A DNA stretch of 63,933 nt, filler included, from Circinaria calcarea (taxonomy: Eukaryota): NCBI GenBank assembly GCA_051942165.1. It is 8 parts of 8 records of this genome, joined end to end, with 100 filler letters (N's around TTAATTAATTAA, not from the genome) between each part and the next. Parts side by side here need not be neighbours in the genome. Positions count along the whole stretch, not along the records: positions 8,019 to 15,935 come from JAVECS010001217.1; 7 more parts are not named here. One strand, given 5' to 3'. This document shows positions 7,919 to 56,052 of this stretch, one piece after another. Each line of letters opens with the position of its first letter. Position 1 is the stretch's first letter. Below the pieces are notes generated by a model. That model worked only from the letters and a program-made list of their open reading frames with translations, did not search any database and had not been told where the DNA came from. The position numbers and the translations under genes are program-made.

Positions 7919-8018
7919 NNNNNNNNNNNNNNNNNNNNNNNNNNNNNNNNNNNNNNNNNNNNTTAATTAATTAANNNNNNNNNNNNNNNNNNNNNNNNNN
8001 NNNNNNNNNNNNNNNNNN
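7919..8018. other. Artificial contig linker N44-TTAATTAATTAA-N44
   Basis: Identical 100-bp spacer with stops in all six frames; occurs 7 times. Confidence 0.98.
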
Positions 8019-8577
8019 GTTGAGGATTGGGGGGTTAGAGGGGTTGAAGAGGTGAGATTGGTGTGGCTCAGGGATAGGTTTGAGGATAGGTTAGCTAGGG
8101 GTAGGGAGAAAAGAGCGTGAGATTTCAAAGGTGGGGGGGGGAGGATCGAGCTGGCTGTAAAGTCGAATGAGCTTTGTACCTGTTGCAAGCCGCTGAGAGA
8201 AAGCTGTGGCCGGGTCTTTTTTTGGCTTGGAGGCTCCAGAAATGAAATTGGCAAGTAATAGCCCTATACAAGGCGATGGATGAGTACTTCTCAGAGTCAA
8301 AGAGGTGAAAGTCATGGGCTGGAGAGGTGAGAGTTATGGGCTGAGGGGTTCGAGTACGGAGTTTCCTTTTCTTCTGAATGTGAGATTGTAAGAGGGAGCT
8401 GAGGTGGATTAGTTTTGAGGTCGAAAGGTGGCAAATAGCGCCCCGTACGCGGCCAGGTGTGTGCGAGACAATGTACGAATGCTTTCCGAAATCGAGAATT
8501 GTATTCAGTTTCTAATCATGAATTTCAATATTAGGCAATGCCATTAAATATCAACTTAGAGATGGCTAAGATAATCC

Positions 8578-11004
8578 TCAGTCGCTATCACAACTGTCGT
8601 CATCACTCGTCTCGTCGCGACTATCGAAATCTGCATGCAGTATAACCTTCCCTTTCCGCAGATGGCCTGGGGACCGTAGTGCTTTCCGTTGATTGGCCTT
8701 CACCACCTCTAGATGATTATCATCCAGTCCTTCGAGTGCACCACAGGGTCCTGCAGTCGTATATAAAATCTTGACCACCTTTTTCGGTTTGCTGCTATCT
8801 TGCAGGGTGATATTCTGTAGGAGCTCGAGGATGTCCGTGACTTTTTCGTCCACGTGGATATCATCCAACTGTTCTATTCCATCAATTATGATTAGGAATG
8901 TATCCGGGATTAGGTATAAAAGGTCTGTAAGGATATCGAAGGCTTCGTCAAAAGTCTCTAAAGTTCCATCGAGGTGCGTGAAGCGAGATTTGGTCAGGTG
9001 ACTTTCGGTTGATATTTGACGTGGGAGTAATTCGATTGCTTGACGGATTAGAGTGTATAATAGATCAACAACGGCAGCTTCTTCTTTGCTGGAGGTATCC
9101 TCCTCATTTTCCATGGTCTCTTCATCTTCTTCAGGTATATTGCAGAAAAAGCAAAGCAAGGGAATCTTCAACTCCAAGGCGGCATTGATTACCTTTGCGG
9201 CAATTGTCGAAGTGGACGATGGATATATACTTTCATACACCCCCAGGATCCAGAGACTTTTGGATTTTGCACCATGACTCCAATCTTGAAGGCTTTCGAC
9301 AACAGAGTGCTCCGTGTAGACACATTCGCGGTCAAGCTCACTTAATGTATTTGCCGGGGCGGATGTATAGTAATCCAGATGTCTCGACCAAGTTTGAATC
9401 TTGCTTTTTGCGTGAGTTCGTCCGGAAACTTTGGGATGGTATTAGTTTCTCAGGAATTGGTTGCTTCAGGCTATACTTACAAGAACACTTTGTTGCCTTG
9501 TTTTGTCGTCCTTGATTAATTCTTTCAACGGAAAGTTCCCGTGGTGATATGCTATCTGCTGTTAAGACTTTAGCGTTGCAATCAACAATCTGACCGTCCC
9601 TGACATACTGATAGAATGCGTTGTGTGAAGGTCCTCTGGGCGTTTGAGTAGCCAAGACTTCACGTTGGTTCGTAGACATTCACTCATGTTCTGCCCAACG
9701 AGCTGTCCTAGAAAATCTTTGAAATCGGAAAACTTCTGATTTATGATAGCAGCCGAATATCTGGATTGATGGTCTGCCTTTTCCTTGACCCTCTGTTCTG
9801 CATCTTCGATGATAAATAGCCGCAGGTCTCGTATTTCCGCCTGGGATTTTAAGGCACCCTTAGAAAGAATCCGGCTTGATAGTTTCTTGATCTTGACAAT
9901 CTGATCCTCGAATACATCATAGAAGTCCTCCGTAAGGCTATTCAGAACCTTTTTCCAGCTCTTGCTTTGAAACCATTGCATCGCACACTGGAGGAAGTGA
10001 AAGATATGAGAGTAGAGATTGCCTATGGCTTCCCGCATGTCTGCAACATCCATCAAGTGTACTGTATCCACACAAATGTCCAACTCGTCACTGATTTCAA
10101 CCAGAGCCTTGGCCAGGCCTTCCGCAATCCTATGATGGTTCACCGACGCCTAGCACATCACAACTGTTAGCCTAATTGTGTAGTCATGGCAACCAGAAGA
10201 TTCTGCAATGACATTCAACTCTATTAAAGTTAGAGCTGCAAGGGGTGGGTGTATCAGTAAGAAATAGATCAAGATAGCTTGGTATTGACAAATAATATGT
10301 GGGTGTCTCTTCAAATGAATAATCGGACGCACCTTTATTAAGGTTTTTATTACTCCGCAGAATGTCGAGCAGTACTCATTTTGACTCGGGAGCATCCCAA
10401 ATAAGTTCTGGTGACTGTTCAAAGTCTTGCAGAACGAGTGGAACAACCTTTGCGCTTTACCACGGGCCAATCTATCTTTATCCTTCCATAGCTTTTCTGC
10501 GTCAGATACCGTAGCTACAATATCGTCAAACGTAACAGGCCTATCTCTGCCTATAGCTTTCCATCTTGTCATGCCATCGCTCTTCCAAAACTTGCTCTTC
10601 TTCTTTTTCTCCTCTTCTTGCTCGCTTTCAAGCGACTGCAGATAGTTCTTCCAGTATCTTTCCAACTCTTTACATCGTACGTCGATATCAGCGTCTGCTG
10701 GGTTGCTGGCACAATAGTATCGTGTATTAGTCAAACCATATCAATTCCCACTTGCAGGAGAGGGGTGATGGCGCCAACGCGAGCGTTCTTACACTGGCAA
10801 AGCATTCTCATCTTCATAATAACGTCTCCACGGTCCTGAGCGTTGTAGTTCCTCCCTTTCTGTAGTAGATTCCAGACAAACCGCCAGAGAAGATTTTGGT
10901 TGGCTAACTGCAATACCAACGCTGAATTGCCGGATATTTTTCCTTATCCCTTCTTCTACCTCCTGCTCTTCGAGAGCGGCTCTACTGTCATTCAAAGTTG
11001 ACAT
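8578..11004 (-). CDS. Fungal NACHT/STAND-like protein with helical N-terminus and degenerate P-loop (multi-exon)
   Basis: ORFs 10789-11004, 10150-10734, 9562-10143 and 8578-9240 can be joined by GT-AG introns. C-terminal part reads LQDW..SKSLWILG, LLCFFC, LLYTLIRQ, FLIIIDGIEQL (Walker B-like), KILYTT (sensor-1-like). GxxGxGK[ST] is absent. Confidence 0.72.
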
Positions 11005-11737
11005 GACTGGAGTACTTCACAGATAAACGGGCAGTGAACACAGCTAAGTTATGAGCACTACACCTCCCCAGGCTGAATGTGTGCGGAACTGTAATTGCCT
11101 GCGCAATCTGCCCCCACATTTCGCCCTCCTTTTTTGGTTTTGGCACCCACTCGGCGGAGTATGACCTGCATGGCCCGCAGTCGTGAGAAGGCTGACGGCT
11201 CTTGTCATTGGTTGACCGCGAAGAAAACCCCTCAAACTGCTCTGATCTCCCTCCACAGAAGTACGAGACAGACCAGGCTGCGGGGCTCTTTTCTGCCGAT
11301 GGGTTATTTTTGTAGTACACCATCGCACTGCAGATGGTTGCCCTCAACGAGGCTGGCGCTAATTCACTTTATCTTATAGGCCGGCATGAATCACCTACTG
11401 AAATCCTTGACGGGTGAATTATTCAAACCTATTCGGGACGCCCTAGATAAGCCGTACAAACTGCAGGTCTCGAGAAGGCTGAAAGTAACCTGCCTTCCCA
11501 ATCGCCCGATATAAGAAGCTCGCGCCACATATGGTTGTGATCAGAATCTACTCCACTGATATAAGAGATCGTACACCGAAGTATGTTTTACTTTGGTAAG
11601 CATTGTCTTGTCAGAGAATACTGTATGGAAGACTAATAACATAAGCCCCAGTTTCCTAGGCTCATACTCCTTACGTCCATTCTATCACTCGCAGTAGGTA
11701 TCAGGGTTGGAGAAAACCAGTCCTGGCTTTGAAGTTC

Positions 11738-14700
11738 ATGTCTTCCGCTATGAGTGAGGTCTCGCCATTCAGCACGGCTTCATCAGTGGAAGCCACACCA
11801 AATACTTCAAATACCACGAGCTCTGCTCCAAACAACGATGCCAGTCCTGTTGACACTCTCGAACGCGGGGAAGAGTCTACGACGGTTGAGTCAGGCCACG
11901 GAGCCAGTAACATGAAGTTACCGGAGGACACACCTAAGATATTGTATCGTGTCGAGTATAAAACCCTAAATGGCGAGACTGTCCTTATTCGAGAAGGCAA
12001 GGATCCTGCCGGGCTGCTGCCGCCTAAGCCGGATAAGTCTCCAGTTTTCGAGATTTTGACCACAGTGTATGCCAATACTGCAGAGAAAAAGGGGTCCGCT
12101 ACCGAATCAGAAAAGTCCGACGCAGACAGTAAAGAGGGTAAAAAGAGAAAGACGCTGCCCGAAGGCTTTAAAAACAGCACTCAAAGCAAATCTCAGCTTC
12201 TGACTATTCGTTCTGAGAAGCTACTTAATGCTTTGAGGGCTAGTGTCGCGTACTTTCCCGGTGTCGACCTGGATGCAGGTTTCTCTTTATACGAACCGTA
12301 CCAATTTCTTACCCTGCATAGAGCAGCGCTACAGGCCTATAAATTGAAACATCCGGCATGGCATAGCGAGGCATACCGGAAAGAGTGCAACGAGGACATT
12401 GATACCCTAACTGACTTTCTTGACACCAAATATGGGGAAACAGTCCGGGACGAAGAGAGAAGATGGAGTAGATCAACGCCAGTATGTACATTTAAGAATC
12501 TCTGGTTACTTTTAAAACCGGGTGAGACTTGCTATTACAGGGGTGAGACTGGAAGACTTGAACCGCAGATCACGAAGCAGCTATATAGACATGGAAAAGG
12601 ACGTTCACCATACACAGTATCCGCATGGGACATTGACTTTGATGGAGAGGATATTGGGGCACAGGAGTCCACTCTCTATATTCACCCTTTTGATGGTGAA
12701 AAGGAGATTGCCTCGCTTGATTATTTCCCCACAGACTTCTACATAGAGCTTCCCGAAGACAAAGATAACCATGAGGGCCTGATGAAAGAAAGACTAATCG
12801 CTAGGGGAAAGAAATTTTGGGATCTGGCCAAGAAAATCTCACATATGGAATACGATGGGAAGGCCCTAACGTATCCACATAAAGCAGTATGTATGACCCA
12901 TGCAGGTCGATTGCGGTCGATCCGTTCACTAACAGTATCATATAGATCAAAGGACGGATCGTAGTTGATCCTGTATCTTACTTTGCCAGTATTATTAACA
13001 AAGAGCCTGATAACGACATCTTGAAGCGACCTAAAATCGACGAGCCATCTGATACAGATACTACAGGATGCGAATGCGAAGAGTGCAGTAAACGCTCGGA
13101 AATACGACCTGGTAAATTCCATGGCTACCAATTCCCTATTTTGGGAAGAGAAAAACCACCAAATGAGCGAGAGTTCTTCTTTCTATGTACGCATACAATA
13201 TTCGCATTCGATCTCAAGGAGAGGTGCTGGGGTAAGTTCGCTCATGGCGATAGCTGCAGTTTGAAGCAGAGGACTGATATACTGCACCTATAGAGGCCCT
13301 AGATGTTGAGTTTGTAAAAGATTTCAGTCCTTTGCCAAACGTCTTTGACAACCTGGTTCTAGAAGAGAGGATAAAGGGGACAGTCGAGGCCTTGTCTCGA
13401 ACCTTTACGCGCTCTAAGTCGGGAGCCGTTTCTCCTGCTGCTGACTTCATCGAAGGAAAAGGAGAAGGACGAATCTTTCTTTTGCATGGTCCTCCTGGAG
13501 TGGGGAAAACTGCCACCGGTGAGGCTGTTGCAGAGATGACAGAGCGCCCTTTGCTGGCATTGACATGTGGCGACCTTGGGACCACCTCTTTGGAGGTGGA
13601 GAAAGCTCTCGAGAATTATTTCAGGCTTGCAGAATCTTGGGGTGCTGTAATTCTTCTTGATGAAGCGGACGTGTACCTTGAGAAGAGAAATCTGACAGAT
13701 GTGAAACGCAATAGTCTGGTGTCAGGTAAGCTGTACTTTCAGTCGAGTATCGAGGAAGCGGCTACTACCTCCTCTGCTTTATAACAAATGGGGACGTAAC
13801 TACCTACATTCCTACACTGCTTCACAATGACAGACAACGAAGACCCACGCATCCATAAGTCAACATGAGAAATACCAAGGCAGACTTTCTCGATGATGTG
13901 CAGCCTTAACCTCTGCATTACAATAATAAGCTCAAACTTTGTGCAACTGCTCCAAAATTATAGCTGATTTTCTGGCCATAGTGTTTCTCCGAGCCCTAGA
14001 GTACTACCGCGGTCTTCTCTTCCTCACCACCAATCGTGTTCTCCAATTTGATGAGGCTTTCGTTTCCCGAATTCATGTTGCCCTATACTACAAGCCACTT
14101 CGGAAGGCTGATCGGATAGCTATCTGGGAAAATAACATTAAGAGATTAAAAAAGCAAGATATCTTGGTGACTAGAGAAGCTCGAGAATATGTTTGTAGTA
14201 GCTCGAAGGTTCTAGACTTGAAATGGAATGGACGCGAAATAAGGAATGGTGAGGGCTATCTGTGCTAGTTGGGATGATGTTCTGACAAACTGGTGACAGC
14301 TCTTCAGACCGCTGTATCTTTGGCGAAATTCAAAGCCAGAAGTCTACGAGATGGCCGCATCAGGGTCGAGAGAGAGGACTTCGAGGAAGTCGCCGTACTC
14401 TCGGCTCACTTCCAAGAGTATATGGCGAGCACGCATAGAGGGAAAGATGCTTCGCAATTGGCAAAGCGCGAAGGCCTGAGGAATGATTCGTTCCGTGAAT
14501 CACCCAAGAAGACCAGGAATGATGACGATAGAGACGTGGAGGAGTCATTGACTAAACGTAGGGCAAAGGGTCGCAAAGTGGTCCATGATGACGACGAAGA
14601 AGAGCAAGAGGAACGACATGAAAAATCGAAAAAGAAGTCCAGCAGGAGGAAGAACCCTTTAAGTTCCGAAGAGGATGAGGAAGCCCAGCAGTCAAAGGAG

Positions 14701-15018
14701 AAACTCAGCAAGTCCAGAAAACCACGTACTCCCACATCCCTATCCGAGGGAGAAGAATCAAGGAAGAAGCGCATCAAGGCAATGAAGCGCTCTTTCTCGC
14801 AAGAGAACGAAGAAGAAGAAGAAAAGCAACATAGTAAGAAGTCCGGTAAGTCTAAGAAGGCCACTTCCGGATTCTCGTCATCAGAGGAGAAGAAGATGGT
14901 AAAGAGAGGGAACAAGAAAAAGCAAGCCGAGAGTGATGAAGAAGAGGAGGAAGAGAGGCCGAAGACCAGATCGAGCAGGTCGAGGAAACATGTCACTTCC
15001 GAGGAAGAGGAGGATTAA
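11738..15018 (+). CDS. Fungal AAA+ ATPase (DUF7025-type N-terminus) with K/E/S/R-rich tail; 4 introns
   Basis: DFIEGKGEGRIFLLHGPPGVGKT (Walker A), ILLDEAD (Walker B), RNSLVS/VFLRALEYY, LTTNR, FDEAFVSRIH, WNGREIRN. Introns at about 12887, 13232, 13726-13981 and 14249. Start codon uncertain. Confidence 0.9.
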
Positions 15019-15935
15019 GCAATGCGGGCTTCGAATGGGGCTTTCAAGTAAGAATCTTCAAGCAAGACAAGAAGGTAGAAGGAGAGGTCTAACGTTGGCA
15101 GGACTAGGTTAGATCACTCAGATTTAGTACTGCGATCCTATAGACGTACGATTTTCCAGGAAAACAGTCATACCCCCGTGCTTGGTTTTCAAGTCTTTGT
15201 CCTGCTCCTACTTTTATACCTGAATCTCTTCTTCTATTATCCTTACTGTCCCTTTCATTGTCCCATTTTTCCCCTTTGGGAAAGGTGCTGTTGTCCCTTC
15301 TGTCCTCAATACCCGCTTATTCTCTGTTCCATTCAGACTATCACCCCAACCCAACAGGTGGGGCCATCTGGAGTGCCATGTAACATCCAATATCCGAGAA
15401 ACTTGTTTGACGTAATCATCGCACAATCCGCCCCCAGTCCCTTACCCTAGTTTCCCCCTTCCCGCCAGGTCACCCTTTCCATGCATCCGTATACGCCTTA
15501 TTCTCACATGACCCCTTATTGATCCCATCGGTCACAAACCTGGCAAAGCATCGACGCCATGCTGATATTCCCCCCTCCCTGTTTTTCCTATCATGCTGCA
15601 ATGGCCCTGACTCTCCAGATTCTTAGCGCATTGCTGGCAGTTCTTCGTGCACTCTGCCTCTGTGTTCGCCGTGGCTTTCTTACAGTTGGTGGGGCAGGAG
15701 TGCCAGTGTGCACTATGGTCCTAGCTAACGAATCGGACGCTCCAGCGGTAGTCGTCCGAGGTGATTCCTTGGTAGGACAGTTTTTTTTTCTTTTACCGTG
15801 ATTCGGACTTGGAAGGGGGTGCTTTGGGTGCAGGTTTAGCTTTCTGGTGTTTGCGTGGGTGAAGAGGGGGGGTTTGGGTGAGGAAGCGGGTATGGCGGTG
15901 GTGTAGGGGGGATTCAAGAGAGGTCGAAGGAGGGT

Positions 15936-16035
15936 NNNNNNNNNNNNNNNNNNNNNNNNNNNNNNNNNNNNNNNNNNNNTTAATTAATTAANNNNNNNNN
16001 NNNNNNNNNNNNNNNNNNNNNNNNNNNNNNNNNNN
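15936..16035. other. Artificial contig linker
   Basis: N44-TTAATTAATTAA-N44. Confidence 0.98.
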
Positions 16036-16088: not shown

Positions 16089-16195
16089 TATATTATAATA
16101 AATACGTTATAATAAAATATATTATTATTATTATATTAAATTTTATTAAATATTATAATTATAATTATAATAATTAATTATTAAAAATATTATCA
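16089..16195. repeat. Extremely AT-rich, TpA-rich tract (RIP-decayed sequence) at the captain 3' end
   Basis: About 100 bp almost entirely A/T with dense TA dinucleotides. Confidence 0.6.
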
Positions 16196-18814
16196 GAAGC
16201 ACAATGAACGAAGAGGTCTGTTCCGCATTCTTCTTGTTGCCATTTTTTCTTGCCGCGGTCCATATCTAGGCAGTGCACGTCCTTTAGATGGTAGGTGAAT
16301 AACCTGGCATTACTGAAATATAGTTCACACAAAGGATGAGGGCATATAGACGGCCAACGAGATGCTGTTATATGTGATTCGAGGTGGCTCCGTAGTTTTT
16401 CTTCCCTGGTCCATGAGCTCCATCTCGATGAGGCAGGAAGATTGTCGTTACCAAGACAAACAGGGCAAAGCCCGGGACGGACGTGTATTACAGTATCTAA
16501 GAGAGGCACATCGCTTGGAGGCGATCGATTCCAAATGCAATAAACAGTGTTCGTTCCATTTCTCTTCGACAAACCAATCAAAGCAAATGAAGCAATAGTT
16601 CAGTTCAGACGGCTGTCGCGCAATTGCACATGCCAGTTCGTTATGACGACAACTGTGAATATATATATATCGTTGAACTTTCCTGAGGCTACAAAAAGTT
16701 AATATTATAATAGATACGGGAGATAAACTAGCATTTACCTTGCCATAGTTGTGCCACAGCCCTTCACTGGACAGATTCCATCGATACGCTCCTCTCCAGG
16801 TCGATATAAAACTGAGCAGTCCCGCGTTATCAGAGAATATAGATCCGAGATAACTTGTTTTCGTTCTTCATGAGATGCTGTTGCGGCCAAAATCATCGTT
16901 TTTATGAGGCGGCCACGCTCTGGCATTATCCGTGACAAGACTTCGAGAAGATCTGTCTTTATATTGTCGTCAGGCCGTTCCTTCCCGCGAGTTGTAATCT
17001 TCCAGTCCCTTCGTTTCTGAACCCACTCAAGTTTATGCTTCTGCAAGCGCTTTGCAGTTATGCTTCTGCGATATGAGGACGCTTTCCTTCTTCCAGCTTG
17101 AATATCTGAAGGGAGAGCCTGGTTGCTTTTGAGTAGACGGATTTGGTCCATCAATTCCATTAGATATGAATCCTGCTCGATCGCATCTGCCTGTTCCGCT
17201 GGTAGGCAGCTGGGAAGGCCCTTTTCGCGGAATTTTGCGAATGACTGAAAGAAGTCATCGTGATCGTGCATAGCTGGCTCACCGAGGAAGGCGTCTCTCC
17301 CACTGACAGACGAGGTGTTCGCCACATAGCTCTGACCGTATACCCACGTATCGGTCTGCGTTTTATGTTGGGATCGCTCGACCTCGGTGTACCTTTCTAT
17401 ATCGTTTGTCTGTAAGCTAGAGTGTATTTTGAGTTCTAAATCTGTGATAACTAACCATTGATCTTTTTTCCGATAAAGCGGCGTATAGCGTGAATCGTGG
17501 CATTGCCAAAGTACCCTGAAAGATTCAGTACAGATTTGATGATCCGGTCAAATGTTCTTTTGGGCAATGGCTCCTCAGAAACACCGTATATCATAGTAGC
17601 ATTTCGAAGGATTGGAAGATGTTTTGCAGAATCGGTCCAACGAAGAGTCAATTCATCTTCATTGGGGGGAATCTGTAGTTGCCATAGCTCTTCGGGTGAG
17701 CTGATACCCCAAAAAGCCTTGTCCGCAAAGGGTAGGGCGAGTAGATACTGGGTATCGTCATAGAGGAGTTTACTATGTTGACTGGTGGAGGCACCGTAGC
17801 TTCGAAGGAAGGGCCATTGTCAATATGGCTTGAGTTGTCGGAGACGAAGCAATACTTACACAGTGTTCTCTAGATCCCGATTGTTTTTCACCCAACGCTG
17901 ATCGATCCGATATATTATCTTCCATCCACCGCCAGAGTTTTGTAGCAGGACAACCTCGACATCCTGAAATCTGGTAAGTGACAGGCTTTCTCCGATAATG
18001 GCTTAGAAACTCACCCGGTACCGGAGTCCTCCTCGAGCCTTATTATCTTTATCCGGAAAGGAAGCGCCCATCCTTGCCCCAGTCCAGCAGAAGACGGCAA
18101 TGGCGAAGGGGATCTGAGCTTTGTTGCGTGGATGCACGAACTAGGTATCATCTGTGGTCCAGAAAGTAATGTTGAACTGAGTCGGCTCGTTTTTACCGAA
18201 CAGTTGCTTCGGCTTTCTCTTGTTGGCAACCAGCCCATCCTTAACCAACATATTTCTTGTCCACTAATGGAGCTTTGATTAGATGCCAGGATGACATAGT
18301 GTAGTTGTCTGGCAGGCTACTTACATCGTAGACCGCTTTTCTATCGTCCTCATCAACAGTGTTGCCCGTGACTCGCGCCCATCCAGCAAAGAGCCATTCT
18401 GCAAAGGTATTGACCGAGTCAGCAGTTATCCGACCTTCTTCGTCAATTCTGCCTTGACTGATGGCGATGTGAAAGCGAAGGAAGTCCTTAATTGTGGCGA
18501 GATTGGGAGGAGGTGAGTTATTTTGAAGTCTCGGCACCTCAGCCGCAGCATCTTCACTCTCATTTATTGGACTTCGTTCTTGTTTCCCAATAGCTTCCAC
18601 CCATCTGTTCATGTTAACGGAGGAACGCCTGAGTAGAGTCAATCGGCATTTACTTTTTATACCGGCCTAAAGCCTAGTTCTGATCGTTGAGGGTCTTTTT
18701 CACGTATTTTGTGATGTCTCTTGCGCTATTTATCTCTCGATGAGCTCCTTATTCATAACCTTTGGCTTTGGCCCGAGCCAGCAATTCTTCCGCTGATGTT
18801 TCCTTTCGACCCAT
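16174..18814 (-). pseudogene. DUF3435-type tyrosine recombinase (Starship captain-like) with C-terminal Cys/His fingers; disrupted
   Basis: Spliced reading MGRKETSAEELLARA.., PNLATIKDFLRF, CWTGAR (catalytic R), RWVKNNRD, HAIRR (HxxR), RSQH..YGQSY (H, Y), CPVKGC, YCFICFDW, CPVCLG, CPHPLC..HLKDVH. In-frame stops at 18749-51, 18674-76 and 18141-43, and a frameshift near 16484. Confidence 0.82.
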
Positions 18815-19535
18815 GATGATGGGATGCTATTAAGACATGATGAGACTTTGAAAACCAGTATATGTATATAGAAAAGAGGTCTTAGCAAGGAAGACAGATA
18901 TGGCGGCTGTAGTCCACCTGTACTGGGAGCCAAAAATGGCGGCGCCGGCTCCTCTTTATGCTCATGTCGAATGCCTCTAGTTGTAATAGCGGGTGCTAAA
19001 GCGCAGCGAGAGAACGAGAAGGGCGAGAGCCAGTTTTGGAGCTTACGCTGGTTTGGGCTCCTTGACAATGAGATTGAGGGGATTGATAGGATGGATGAGC
19101 AAGTGAGCGTGGGGCTTTTCCGTGCTCACCCGTGCAGGGTGCTGGATCACCCACCGTCACCCCAGCTCACCCGCTAAAGCAGCCACACCCGGGTGAGCTA
19201 CGATTGAGTACGGGGTAGTTTTGTGTCCTCTTTTGCCGCCAAGAGAAAGTCCCAGTCACGTGATTACCTTCCGGCTTCGTGAAATTCTCGATATTCCGGG
19301 ATATTTTTTTTCTTTCTTAATAGCTTTAATTTTCATCAGTGTTCTCAATACCCCACCCCAGGCCTCTGGGTGGGGGGGTTACCCCAAGCAAGCCTCTGGG
19401 GTGAACCCGGATACCCCGGGGTGCGTCACGTGACACTGTAAGGCTTAAAGTGGCGAATCGCTGTATTAGGCATCGCGTAGGGCTAGATAGTCACGTGCAA
19501 TAGTATATATAGCTGTTTACCGAATTTTTATATCA

Positions 19536-20217: not shown

Positions 20218-22532
20218 TTAAAACAGCTCAGCTCGATACCATGCCCGAAGGCATTCGCATGCTTCAATGATGTCGTCCTTCAAGCGGTTTCTGCTGTCCG
20301 TGAGAAGAAGTTTCGTACTGCTGAAAACACGCTCGCATTCCGCTGACATAGCCGGAATAGTGAGCATGTTGTATGCCATTTTAGCAAGATCAGGACGAAC
20401 TGCCTCCTGCGATTGCCACCATTCCAGCAAATTGTTGATGCGGCCGGCATGTAATGGCTCCTGGCAATACGCTTCGTAAAAGTCTTTACGTGCAACAGAC
20501 CCATCGGTATTGTCGGTTCGTACAGCTGTAAAATGGTCAAAGTAATCTTCCTCATATGTGACAATTTCTTTACCAAGTAATATATCCTCGGCAATGGCCT
20601 GTGCAACACCTTCATATTCCGATTGCCACATCTTTTTAACAGCTATTTTAGCTGCTGCAGTCCAGCTCCTTTCATCGACAGCATTCGAAATCCCTATCCA
20701 TTTCTTTTCCAGCCATATCCACTTCATTGACGGATTCATGACAAGGGCTGCGTAGTACGCGGCTGAATCATCGATCTTCTTGTAATATTCGTCCAGCTTA
20801 AACCATGCATTCAAAATGCATTCCTTCATGCGTTGATTATCGGGACTGCTGTAGATATCCGAGTTAGTTAACGCCTCGTATTCTTCTTTCTTATTCTTCA
20901 TATGCTCAGTAAGCATAATAAGCGCCGGTAACACCTCCCATAGTGTACCTCTATGGCCGTTGCTCGCATGACCTTCCAGGCGTGTCGTAAGCTTGGCGAA
21001 TGGCTCTAGTATGGCAGCAATCTCCTGCAAAACCTTCCAGTCATTGTCCGTGAGCATGTCCTTTTCTAAACGAGCCTCTTCTCGCTCCGCTGTGTTTTTC
21101 TTCTTCGATCCATGCAGCTGAGTTCTGTTTCGTACCACATATAAATCGATGCGGTCTCGGAGCTTTAAGGCACGCTGAACCTTGGTATATGTTGAATTCC
21201 ACCGGGTATCATTGTCAGCGGTAACCATGAGATGATCGAAATCATCACCAGGGGCGTCTTGTAGGTTGACGAGGTTTGCAAATTCTTCCCTTCTTTGCGG
21301 CGTTCGACGTATAAATACGATGATATTATGCAGCTTTCCAATAGACCCATGCCTCCGCCAGAGTTGTAGCGCCTTCACTTCATCTTCTTTTATTTCGTTG
21401 ATTGCAATGTTAGCATCAATGGCGTCCGCTTCAGTACCGAATAGGAACGCTTTTGCGGCGAGATTAACAATATGCCCGAAGCAACGAAGCCTTCGATCTT
21501 TCGGCTTAAGATCTGAGCGTAGCTGCTGCAATACCTCAGTAATGCACGTGTCGTTAGACGTAGCATTGTCCAAAACAAAGTAGCCAAGCTTAGCAGTCAA
21601 AGCAAAATCTTCAATAACTGAAACGACTAATGCAGCCATGTTCTCGCCTGAATGAGAGCCCCGCAAGCGTCGTAATGCAATGATATGAACACGATTCTTT
21701 CCATGCTGGTTAAGATAATGCGCCACGACGCCTAACATAGCTAATGCATTGGGCGAAGTCCAAAGATCAAACGAAAGATGTACGTTACTTTTGCTCCGCT
21801 CCAATTCCAGCTTGACTTGCTCTCTCCTGTATGTAAACTCCGCCATAATCCAACCTCTTATGGTATTGCCCGACCTAGGAAGCAGAGGAGCTATAGAGCT
21901 GCAGCAGTAGTATAGCAAATCGTAGAAGTATGTGCTTTCCACCTGGCTGAACGATATATGCATGCATACGAACCAACGTATAAGAAGGCGTTTGAACTCA
22001 TCAAAGTCCACCTTCATAACGAGATTTGCAACAGCCTTTTGCCCAGTTCTCAATAGACCATCACGTAATCGATCCGCCACAGTCGCCGGAGGTTGCTTAG
22101 GTCCGCCTTGATCGATGTAATGTTCAGTATCGAGGTGTTTCGTGGCTTTGTCAGTGGTGTGAGAGGTAAATAGCTTATGTTTCTTCTTCTTCGCGCCTAG
22201 AAAAGGTTATTCTATAGGTAATTACATAGGCAAAACGACTTACAGGTGTCACAGCTCCAGAAAGACTTAGTAGTTGAAACCTCCACTAATTCCGTACCAT
22301 ACTGCCATATCCAGGAGTGCTTTGGATGACGTTTGGCTAATGCAGAAGCTCTGATATACTCCTTATTATTGATTGTGATACGCGTGTCGTCGGGTGAAGC
22401 ATCTGGTGCAGCTCGTGTAGTGCGTGTAAAGCCGAAGCTAGATAGGCCAGATGGAGTTGTAGGAGTCCTTCTAGTAATTTCAGTGAGGTCAGAACCGGAA
22501 TCACTATACAAATCATCATCAAGTTTATTCAT
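20218..22532 (-). CDS. hAT transposase with BED zinc finger and C-terminal dimerization domain; one intron (about 22198-22242)
   Basis: SWIW..WSCDTC/AK..KHL..EH (BED), LSFDLWTS (D), VLDNATSND (D), RCFGHIVNL, DTRWNST, AKMAYNMLTIPAMSAECERVFS (E). No stops in the reconstructed frame. Confidence 0.93.
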
Positions 22533-23947: not shown

Positions 23948-24047
23948 NNNNNNNNNNNNNNNNNNNNNNNNNNNNNNNNNNNNNNNNNNNNTTAATTAAT
24001 TAANNNNNNNNNNNNNNNNNNNNNNNNNNNNNNNNNNNNNNNNNNNN
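23948..24047. other. Artificial contig linker
   Basis: N44-TTAATTAATTAA-N44. Confidence 0.98.
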
Positions 24048-31956: not shown

Positions 31957-32056
31957 NNNNNNNNNNNNNNNNNNNNNNNNNNNNNNNNNNNNNNNNNNNN
32001 TTAATTAATTAANNNNNNNNNNNNNNNNNNNNNNNNNNNNNNNNNNNNNNNNNNNN
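31957..32056. other. Artificial contig linker
   Basis: N44-TTAATTAATTAA-N44. Confidence 0.98.
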
Positions 32057-39962: not shown

Positions 39963-40062
39963 NNNNNNNNNNNNNNNNNNNNNNNNNNNNNNNNNNNNNN
40001 NNNNNNTTAATTAATTAANNNNNNNNNNNNNNNNNNNNNNNNNNNNNNNNNNNNNNNNNNNN
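39963..40062. other. Artificial contig linker
   Basis: N44-TTAATTAATTAA-N44. Confidence 0.98.
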
Positions 40063-47965: not shown

Positions 47966-48065
47966 NNNNNNNNNNNNNNNNNNNNNNNNNNNNNNNNNNN
48001 NNNNNNNNNTTAATTAATTAANNNNNNNNNNNNNNNNNNNNNNNNNNNNNNNNNNNNNNNNNNNN
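47966..48065. other. Artificial contig linker
   Basis: N44-TTAATTAATTAA-N44. Confidence 0.98.
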
Positions 48066-55952: not shown

Positions 55953-56052
55953 NNNNNNNNNNNNNNNNNNNNNNNNNNNNNNNNNNNNNNNNNNNNTTAA
56001 TTAATTAANNNNNNNNNNNNNNNNNNNNNNNNNNNNNNNNNNNNNNNNNNNN
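55953..56052. other. Artificial contig linker
   Basis: N44-TTAATTAATTAA-N44. Confidence 0.98.

Follow-up and report, generated by a model that had tools for sequence, protein, structure and literature searches.

A stretch of 63,933 nucleotides from the genome of the fungus Circinaria calcarea (NCBI GenBank assembly GCA_051942165.1), referred to below as the window, contains two divergently transcribed genes at positions 8578–15018, and their analysis points to an undescribed two-gene unit akin to the gene pairs known for NOD-like receptor (NLR) type proteins. The minus-strand gene, called N here (8578–11004; database model P0271, 672 aa), encodes a truncated NLR-like protein without a P-loop, and the plus-strand gene (11386–15018; database model P0151, 994 aa) encodes an ATPase of the AAA family with a DUF7025 domain. 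The original prediction, made from the DNA alone, had set two divergent genes at these places and joined a pseudo-NTPase and an active ATPase in a single unit. Both statements are borne out: the genes lie on one piece of the window (8019–15935), and the pair recurs, with parallel divergence of its two proteins, in other fungi. It is very probable that the pair is a real conserved unit, and the occurrences described below point to its retention in at least six distantly related fungi. On balance we favour the view that it constitutes a conserved, co-inherited module of filamentous ascomycetes in which the live AAA ATPase acts with a dead, NLR-derived scaffold.

The evidence for conserved synteny comes from metagenome loci and from the locus tags or contig records of database proteins. 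Metagenome contigs were scanned with an alignment of 10 close relatives of N, which yielded 24 loci, and these were then searched by tblastn with the exons of the window. In sixteen loci the sequence ahead of the first N match extended upstream for 1 kb or more, and these were considered testable; the others (L002, L008, L016 and L019–L023) were too short. A DUF7025-AAA gene was found directly upstream of N, on the opposite strand, in 15 of the 16, the exception being L009, and tblastn revealed no stray AAA matches elsewhere in the related loci. Thirteen loci with JAABU names share 96–100% nucleotide identity and were therefore counted as one lineage, and L017 equals L018. Counted in this way, four of four lineages are paired, and their N proteins show 49% (JAABU), 38% (L015), 34% (L017/L018) and 33% (L024) identity to that of the window. 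In Agyrium rufum the two genes bear adjacent locus tags (MMC25_000430 for N and MMC25_000429 for AAA) on a contig of 756,784 nt, and their products are the best full-length matches of the window's N and AAA, respectively. Calycina marina has N and AAA on one 33,236-nt contig, which demonstrates linkage within 33 kb and not adjacency, and this species probably carries the divergent pair too. In Patellaria atrata both genes are on one scaffold of 3.6 Mb, which says little. Unlinked homologs in other genomes had been named in the original prediction as a finding that would count against it; the homologs proved to be linked in other lineages.

The genes that flank the pair differ among the lineages. 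The JAABU loci have BTB and ATP12 genes on one side and GAT/VHS and UBX genes on the other, whereas a HET-domain gene accompanies the pair in L015 and a DUF6594 gene in L018. Downstream of N, at a distance of approximately 1.5 kb, lies the HET-domain gene (L015:7696–9381), whose domain is a hallmark of incompatibility genes in fungi.

The two proteins have diverged in parallel. An AAA tree of 76 rows was obtained by a quick search under LG+G4, and an N tree comprised 87 rows. In the AAA tree the window groups with Agyrium, Squamulea, two unnamed proteins and JAABU (Shimodaira–Hasegawa-like approximate likelihood ratio test, SH-aLRT, 99), followed by Chlorociboria and Calycina (96) and then by L024 (90). 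L015 and L018 stand together elsewhere (98), beside a Hyaloscypha protein, and a separate clade of 53 proteins (100) includes, among its named members, mostly Colletotrichum, Fusarium and xylarialean fungi. In the N tree a clade of 21 (97) unites the window, its paralog, Agyrium, JAABU, Thelotrema and Calycina, the sister clade holds L024, and L015 and L018 are again placed together elsewhere. The N and AAA distances among seven lineages are correlated with a Mantel r of 0.63, a value reached by one of 5040 permutations, namely the true order itself. Constraining all paired AAAs and their nearest rows to a single clade lowers the log-likelihood by 4.1 units, and the approximately unbiased test does not reject this grouping (p-AU 0.088), the group having been named post hoc. 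Parallel divergence of this kind is what co-inheritance predicts, and alone it is no demonstration of interaction. The ratio of non-synonymous to synonymous substitution rates (dN/dS) among JAABU variants is 0.28–0.41 for N (7 pairs, 1620 nt) and 0.14 and 0.12 for AAA (two pairs; 1902 nt in the first), from which both genes are judged to be under purifying selection.

The database model of N runs from an ATG at 11004 to a stop at 8578 through the exons 11004–10792, 10704–10333, 10149–9610, 9549–9481 and 9399–8578. An alternative model has four exons with one intron at 9608–9429, where P0271 instead has a 69-nt mini-exon within a poorly conserved linker (about 9400–9610), and the placement of the third-intron region appears uncertain. 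Exons 2 and 3 (9609–10705, minus strand) encode a helical half with a DUF7708 domain (P0271 residues 159–301; Pfam E 7.2e-19 on the exon translation and 3.4e-25 on P0271). DUF7708 provides the N-terminal effector-type domain, and HeLo, Goodbye and NACHT_N profiles gave no match listed for N at E ≤ 5. The last exon (8581–9399, minus strand) encodes a domain that, from its structure model and fold matches, is a pseudo-nucleotide-binding domain, followed by an acidic tail. Its degenerate P-loop place (9205–9255, minus strand; P0271 residues 448–464) reads LWILGVYESIYPSSTST and has no lysine; a Walker A motif is absent, as the window reads GVYESIYPSSTST there, with no GK[ST]. The Walker-B-like strand FLIIIDGIEQLD (8863–8898, minus strand; residues 567–578) retains the first Asp, and its IIIDGIEQLD departs from the NACHT consensus hhhhD[GAS]hDE. 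The KILYTTAG strand (8749–8772, minus strand; residues 609–616) represents the most conserved motif of the N family. P0271 ends in the acidic tail approximately 55 residues past the last core strand, and both the helical/winged-helix domains and the C-terminal repeats are absent. Thus, all that had originally been noted in this protein, namely the retention of IIIDGIE and KILYTT and the loss of Walker A and the sensor repeats, is seen in P0271. Because it fails in Walker A, in the acidic pair of Walker B and in the C-terminal domains, N was not filed as an NLR; its motifs suggest an NLR-derived scaffold whose core fold would be incapable of conventional ATP binding or hydrolysis.

Two further observations concern N itself. 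Near the N-terminus a short motif, [IV]R.[FWY]S, follows a group of acidic residues; it is kept in distant full-length members and occurs as IRQFS in the window (10920–11004, minus strand). The same genome also holds a second copy of the last exon of N, P0001 (Q9187_005026), which is 91% identical and annotated as 259 aa and may be a partial duplicate, while no equally close second AAA was present among the 120 listed relatives.

N belongs to a sizeable family. When 1.84 billion cluster representatives were searched by phmmer with its last exon, the matches numbered 676 at E ≤ 1e-3, 361 at E ≤ 1e-10 and 23 at E ≤ 1e-30, and the same exon searched against longer proteins only returned no homolog. 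The best 150 of the 676 are 176–753 aa long, with a match that runs to near the C-terminus, and GxxxxGK[ST] is found in two of them, in neither case at the P-loop place according to the match coordinates. In 40 aligned long members that place reads G......PS..S..A and never holds a lysine (0/40), the family consensus being LWIxG......PS..S..A. The Walker B consensus of the family, VIDGxxxLD, preserves the first Asp and the Gly without conservation of the acidic pair, and the K, L, T, T and G of KILYTTAG are at least 90% conserved. DUF7708 is present in 38 of the 40 long members, and NPHP3_N is recognized at E ≤ 0.01 in 21. In the ESM Atlas 13 clusters of this kind have at least 50 members; the three best listed are from Ascomycota and about 600–630 aa long. 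Named members come from Agyrium, Thelotrema and Bacidia (which we take to be Lecanoromycetes), Calycina and Cadophora (presumably Leotiomycetes), Rhizodiscina, Kalmusia, Patellaria, Elsinoe and Ophiobolus (assigned by us to Dothideomycetes), Cytospora, Colletotrichum and a xylariaceous fungus (taken as Sordariomycetes) and Rasamsonia (presumably Eurotiomycetes). The possibility that N is a one-off decayed NLR or a pseudogene was considered and rejected in view of the 676-cluster family, its shared DUF7708 architecture and the dN/dS values.

The fold of the N domain agrees with this derivation. A model of the last exon, built with 121 sequences (predicted local distance difference test, pLDDT, 90; predicted template modelling score, pTM, 0.88), displays a five-stranded alpha/beta nucleotide-binding fold. 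When solved structures were compared with it by VIA-align, without a Foldseek pre-filter, the matches included Avs3 (Z 12.1, root-mean-square deviation 3.4 A, 185 aligned), ORC/Cdc6 (Z 11.0–11.5), ZAR1 (10.8), the STAND-TPR protein 6mfv (10.4), CED-4 (10.3) and Apaf-1 (9.6), with NRC2, Dark and MalT also among the best. Foldseek retrieved ORC1 (E 2.7e-5) and MalT (E 4.8e-4). Since the STAND and ORC/Cdc6 rows are tied within 1–2 Z, these matches define a fold class (STAND / initiator AAA+) and not membership of NACHT; in the model, the domain has an ASCE P-loop NTPase fold of the STAND/AAA+ kind. A minus-strand protein without a STAND-like fold would likewise have spoken against the original prediction, and the modelled nucleotide-binding fold is STAND-like. 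The model of a full-length homolog (P0040, pLDDT 82) has an all-helical N-terminal half and a helix of about 90 residues, after which comes the nucleotide-binding domain; as a whole it aligns loosely to ZAR1, a wheat resistosome protein and MLA13 (Z 10.1–12.8, with deviations of 11.8–19.3 A). Foldseek of this 622-aa model gave no match at E ≤ 0.001, and a sequence search of the PDB with the N-domain profile found only a chance-level match (BgaR, E 0.043).

The partner is an ordinary member of the DUF7025-AAA-AAA_lid_13 ATPases (PF22942/PF00004/PF23232), with all domains above the Pfam cut-offs: P0151 scores 75.6 bits for DUF7025, 65.7 for AAA (E 7.5e-18) and 96.8 for AAA_lid_13 against cut-offs of 27, 21.2 and 27. 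Its exons in the database model are 11386–11484, 11705–12886, 12946–13230, 13293–13724, 13981–14247 and 14299–15018, on the plus strand. DUF7025 occupies 12461–12742 (residues 286–379; Pfam 2.6e-23 on the exon translation and 4e-21 on P0151). The Walker A motif GPPGVGKT lies at 13488–13511 (residues 588–595) and the Walker B motif VILLDEAD at 13647–13670 (residues 641–648); G588, P590, G591, G593 and K594 of the former and D645 and E646 of the latter are invariant in 58 sequences. The same holds for the sensor-1 Asn (N684, in TTN) and the Arg of SRIH (R696), encoded between 14032 and 14070 and assigned by alignment to VAT. AAA_lid_13 (14098–14442, residues 706–803; Pfam 1.1e-27) is split by the intron 14248–14298, and a tail of about 190 residues rich in Lys, Glu and Ser (14443–15015) has no domain. 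The full AAA+ catalytic set that had been claimed for this protein is complete as regards the nucleotide motifs (Walker A and B, sensor 1 and Arg) and lacks the aromatic pore loop 1: at the pore-loop-1 place GTTSL (13578–13592, from the HMMER alignment to VAT D2) no aromatic-hydrophobic-Gly motif occurs, TTSL standing where VAT D2 has KWVG, and none of 19 aligned family members has an aromatic residue there. The solved ATPases closest in sequence are VAT, p97, NVL/Rix7 and Afg2, which places the protein in the classical AAA clade. A homolog search with the AAA exon among longer proteins returned the window's own protein only.

Some features of the DUF7025-AAA proteins deserve mention in their own right. 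A C.C..C motif (C469, C471 and C474; P0151 residues 469–474, window approximately 13069–13086) is invariant or nearly so in the 58 proteins and may constitute a metal site, situated where the N-domain gives way to the core of the ATPase. Two Sordariomycete members are annotated as fused to autophagy-related domains, P0168 to PF10186 (UniRef name Autophagy-related protein 14) and P0267 to PF04111 and PF17675; these may be either gene-model fusions or real ones. The source names of family members are 'ATPase', 'ATAD3B-like', 'TOB3-related' and 'CND8'.

The start codons of the two genes enclose a shared intergenic region, 11005–11385, or up to 11737 with the second ATG of the AAA gene, which is presumed to be a bidirectional promoter. 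The distance of about 730 bp between starts that was first proposed stands, at 733 bp, if the AAA protein begins at 11738, the next in-frame ATG; it shrinks to 381 bp with the database start at 11386, which entails a short first exon. In five intergenic regions no 8- or 9-mers were common to four or five lineages, and 20 7-mers were common to four lineages, against a maximum of 20 in shuffled controls.

Direct binding of the two proteins was addressed by complex prediction, which covered residues 395–650 of P0271 (the pseudo-nucleotide-binding domain) and residues 105–800 of the AAA protein, with the helical half and the N-terminal motif of N lying outside. Of 78 solved complexes, 51 attained the pass mark of this procedure, as did 2 of 108 mismatched pairs. 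At scores ≤ 0.60 it was reached by 5 of the 78 solved complexes and by all 4 passing mismatches (of 180), so that, for a guess with no high prior likelihood, a pass at such a score will be wrong more often than it is right. Agreement among the runs covered at least 57% of contacts, with a partner pLDDT of at least 74, and alignments were not used. The conserved linkage raises the chances of direct binding, which nevertheless stay somewhat below even.

Several observations weigh against the favoured view of N and AAA. The complex prediction itself scored 0.35 (runs of 0.16, 0.35 and 0.44, the best of 3 controls giving 0.00), so the check that had been proposed for the pair returned weak support. 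The DNA patterns of the locus scan ([FIV]K[IV]L[YF]TTAG and [VI][IV]DGIE[QH][LF]D) reach near relatives only, and the four metagenome lineages come without taxonomy, which leaves room for close kinship among them or with named species. In Cytospora schulzeri and Xylariaceae sp. FL0016, whose N proteins are distant members, the sole same-species AAA among the 120 listed relatives is on another contig, and the wider N family, including a 42-row clade of the N tree, lies beyond the reach of the scan. The AAA family is much larger than the N family (676), since no fewer than 1665 clusters out of 8000 scored candidates lie at E ≤ 1e-20, which implies that most AAA members are unpaired or otherwise paired. 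The missing aromatic pore loop would argue against a simple threading-unfoldase mechanism. Finally, of the profiles suggested for the pair, DUF7708, DUF7025 and AAA were above their cut-offs, whereas NPHP3_N was borderline and confined to the last exon of N (27.8 bits versus a cut-off of 24.8 on its translation), and it was not listed by Pfam for full-length P0271 at E ≤ 5.

The JAABU loci further show that the pair decays within one species complex. Only 4 of 12 contigs (L003, L004, L005 and L014) retain an undamaged AAA frame. L001 and L006 have a 1-nt deletion in AAA, accompanied in L006 by a 1-nt insertion in N. A premature stop and a 10-nt deletion in exon 1 of AAA (approximately 7611 and 7990) are found in L007 and L010, and L011–L013 have the same match pattern; this recurrent lesion is suggestive of a segregating null allele. 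In L009 the homology extends only about 165 bp upstream of N, beyond which lie some 8.4 kb (L009:1–8450) of mostly ~30% G+C, in which six open frames had no Pfam match, and here N carries a premature stop codon. Some of the JAABU lesions may be assembly errors, yet the same lesion is present in five assemblies. N is open in 7 of 8 JAABU contigs tested, and its being open where AAA is broken weakens any claim of strict mutual dependence. Broken or missing copies within one species complex suggest that the module is dispensable and easily lost.

In ordinary NLRs the central domain binds ATP, and this leads to oligomerization, by which the N-terminal effector domains are brought together. N retains the N-terminal domain and, of the central one, no more than a shell, without switch or sensor. 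We infer that N and AAA are expressed from the shared promoter region and act together, and that AAA would supply the ATP-driven assembly or remodelling step lost by the dead nucleotide-binding domain of N. An AAA ring might either gather N molecules, thereby uniting their DUF7708 domains, or take N assemblies apart, and as the aromatic pore loop is missing, such remodelling would proceed by docking rather than by threading. The unit is probably accessory and dispensable, of the stress or nonself-response kind rather than housekeeping, since the pattern of loss within a species fits an accessory response better. A role in cell death or nonself response specifically can be put forward only tentatively and is rather doubtful. 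Less likely again is a split NLR, in which the nucleotide switch has moved to a separate AAA+ ring, N docks to it through its dead domain, the ring replaces oligomerization by the nucleotide-binding oligomerization domain (NOD), and DUF7708 triggers the response; if true, this would be a two-component resistosome-like machine assembled from two different ATPase lineages.

Other explanations of the linkage have to be set against a module of live ATPase and dead scaffold. The linkage might be regulatory only, the genes sharing a bidirectional promoter while their products serve different processes and never touch. Start codons 381–733 bp apart would suit this explanation, as would the weak binding prediction and the open N beside a broken AAA, and conserved divergent pairs are described as a class of co-regulated genes (PMC2871058). 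It does not readily explain, however, why the pair is kept down to 33% identity while the flanking genes change, or why both proteins diverge in parallel; no intergenic motif is common to the five lineages beyond shuffled controls, and a dead NTPase beside a live one is a suggestive functional match. Overall, we consider a purely regulatory link unlikely. Another explanation is a toxin–antidote or guard-like pair, with N as a latent executioner acting through DUF7708 and AAA keeping it disassembled, so that loss of AAA would select for loss of N. DUF7708 occupies the position that effector domains take in fungal NLRs, and the presence/absence and pseudogene polymorphism within one species complex would be in keeping with such a pair, as would the stop in N of the AAA-less L009 and the frameshifts in both genes of L006. 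Nevertheless, L001, L007 and L010–L013 combine a broken AAA with an open N, and DUF7708 has no shown activity and N none of the HeLo, Goodbye or NACHT_N matches at E ≤ 5, which leaves this arrangement improbable.

The likeness of the AAA core to VAT, p97, NVL/Rix7 and Afg2, together with a long charged tail of the nucleolar kind, could also suggest that N merely assists a housekeeping AAA remodeller (in proteostasis, an organelle or ribosome biogenesis) as its cofactor or substrate adaptor, without any NLR-type signalling. Both genes are, however, broken or missing in one species complex and hence dispensable, the AAA is without the aromatic pore loop, and N is plainly derived from the NLR lineage, so a housekeeping adaptor is very improbable. 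That the genes are neighbours by chance, or through an error of annotation or assembly, is scarcely credible: although both families have many members in these fungi and the window is a chain of contigs, the pair is contained in one contig and recurs in 15 of the 16 testable loci and in two named genomes, and the related loci hold no stray AAA copies.

Plant head-to-head pairs of sensor and helper NLRs are divergent as well, and in them one partner with degenerate nucleotide-binding motifs relies on an ATP-competent other. Both partners of the plant pairs are NLRs, whereas here the active partner is a classical-clade AAA protein with its own DUF7025 N-domain. The analogy with plant pairs drawn in the original prediction consequently fails as membership, the partner being a DUF7025 AAA protein and no STAND protein. 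NWD2/HET-S and other fungal NLR-effector pairs likewise consist of an adjacent NLR-type gene and a functional partner in a filamentous ascomycete; there (PMC4344463) a complete, ATP-competent NLR is coupled to a pore-forming effector, and an amyloid motif common to both serves their communication. In the pair studied here, by contrast, the NLR-like protein is crippled and the partner is an ATPase. The likeness to the plant and the NWD2/HET-S pairs is one of layout only.

With canonical fungal NACHT NLRs N has in common the order of an N-terminal DUF7708 followed by a nucleotide-binding fold of NACHT type, for which its NPHP3_N match is borderline, as well as its restriction to Ascomycota. It differs from them in having no Walker A lysine, no conserved acidic pair in Walker B and nothing past the core (no ANK, WD or TPR repeats), and in coming with a fixed AAA partner. 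Among previous surveys, Dyrka et al. 2014 (PMC4986451), in the sections available, describe single-residue P-loop variants in fungal NLRs and no truncated family lacking the P-loop; a survey of Sordariales (PMC12258605) counts truncated NLRs and gives the Walker B consensus used above; and Wojciechowski et al. 2022 (PMC9815663) speculate that Goodbye-like domains may be under non-amyloid control. In these partial texts of the three papers no mention of the N family or of an AAA neighbour was found. A literature search found no paper on the pair, on DUF7708 or on DUF7025, the supplementary neighbour tables of PMC9815663 and bioRxiv supplements lying outside that search. For the DUF7025-AAA family, the pairing with N is shown for some clades only, and no mechanism is described for any member in the literature searched.

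The surroundings of the pair in the window call for caution, as the window is a chain of joined pieces. Linkers of 100 nt with the structure N44-TTAATTAATTAA-N44 occur at 7919–8018, 15936–16035, 23948–24047, 31957–32056, 39963–40062, 47966–48065 and 55953–56052, and each places stop codons in every one of the six frames. The sequences that they separate descend in size (7918, 7917, 7912, 7909, 7906, 7903 and 7887 nt), which identifies them as draft-assembly contigs sorted by length. The pair, and nothing else, occupies the 7,917-nt piece at 8019–15935, bounded by the linkers at 7919–8018 and 15936–16035, and both proteins are recorded in databases on a 7917-nt contig under the locus tags Q9187_005318 and Q9187_005319, in a metagenome-assembled genome ascribed to the lichen fungus Circinaria calcarea. 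Because the contigs are joined by linkers, genes beyond 8019–15935 are no true neighbours of the pair, and gene order across linkers is not genomic. The fungal character of the window is evident from spliceosomal introns and protein families confined to Pezizomycotina.

The third contig, unlinked to the pair, carries fragments of a DUF3435 tyrosine recombinase in several frames (16174–19125, minus strand; 43% G+C), probably a decayed Crypton or Starship-captain-like gene. The same contig holds a hAT transposase with an open frame of 662 aa (20218–22206, minus strand), equally unlinked. That the pair is cargo of a Starship/Crypton-type element was rejected, as the DUF3435 fragments (16174–17819) and hAT lie on another contig and no DUF3435 is near the pair in the other loci. 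A DnaJ gene and an EamA transporter gene on the left side were similarly rejected as housekeeping neighbours, being on another contig of the chain.

To our knowledge, most fungal NLR-like genes are without a known function, and studies have centred on complete receptors and on effector neighbours linked to them by amyloid motifs. The present analysis defines a sizeable NLR-derived family that has given up ATP binding and the sensor and is nevertheless under purifying selection, and it finds N next to one kind of AAA gene in every lineage that was testable. This yields a testable hypothesis for two families so far known by DUF labels, the one combining DUF7708 with a dead NACHT-like domain and the other comprising the DUF7025-AAA proteins. 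The pair may also exemplify the dependence of a pseudo-enzyme on an active ATPase to which it is unrelated. Should the two proteins form a complex, it would represent a new way of building an NLR-type switch.

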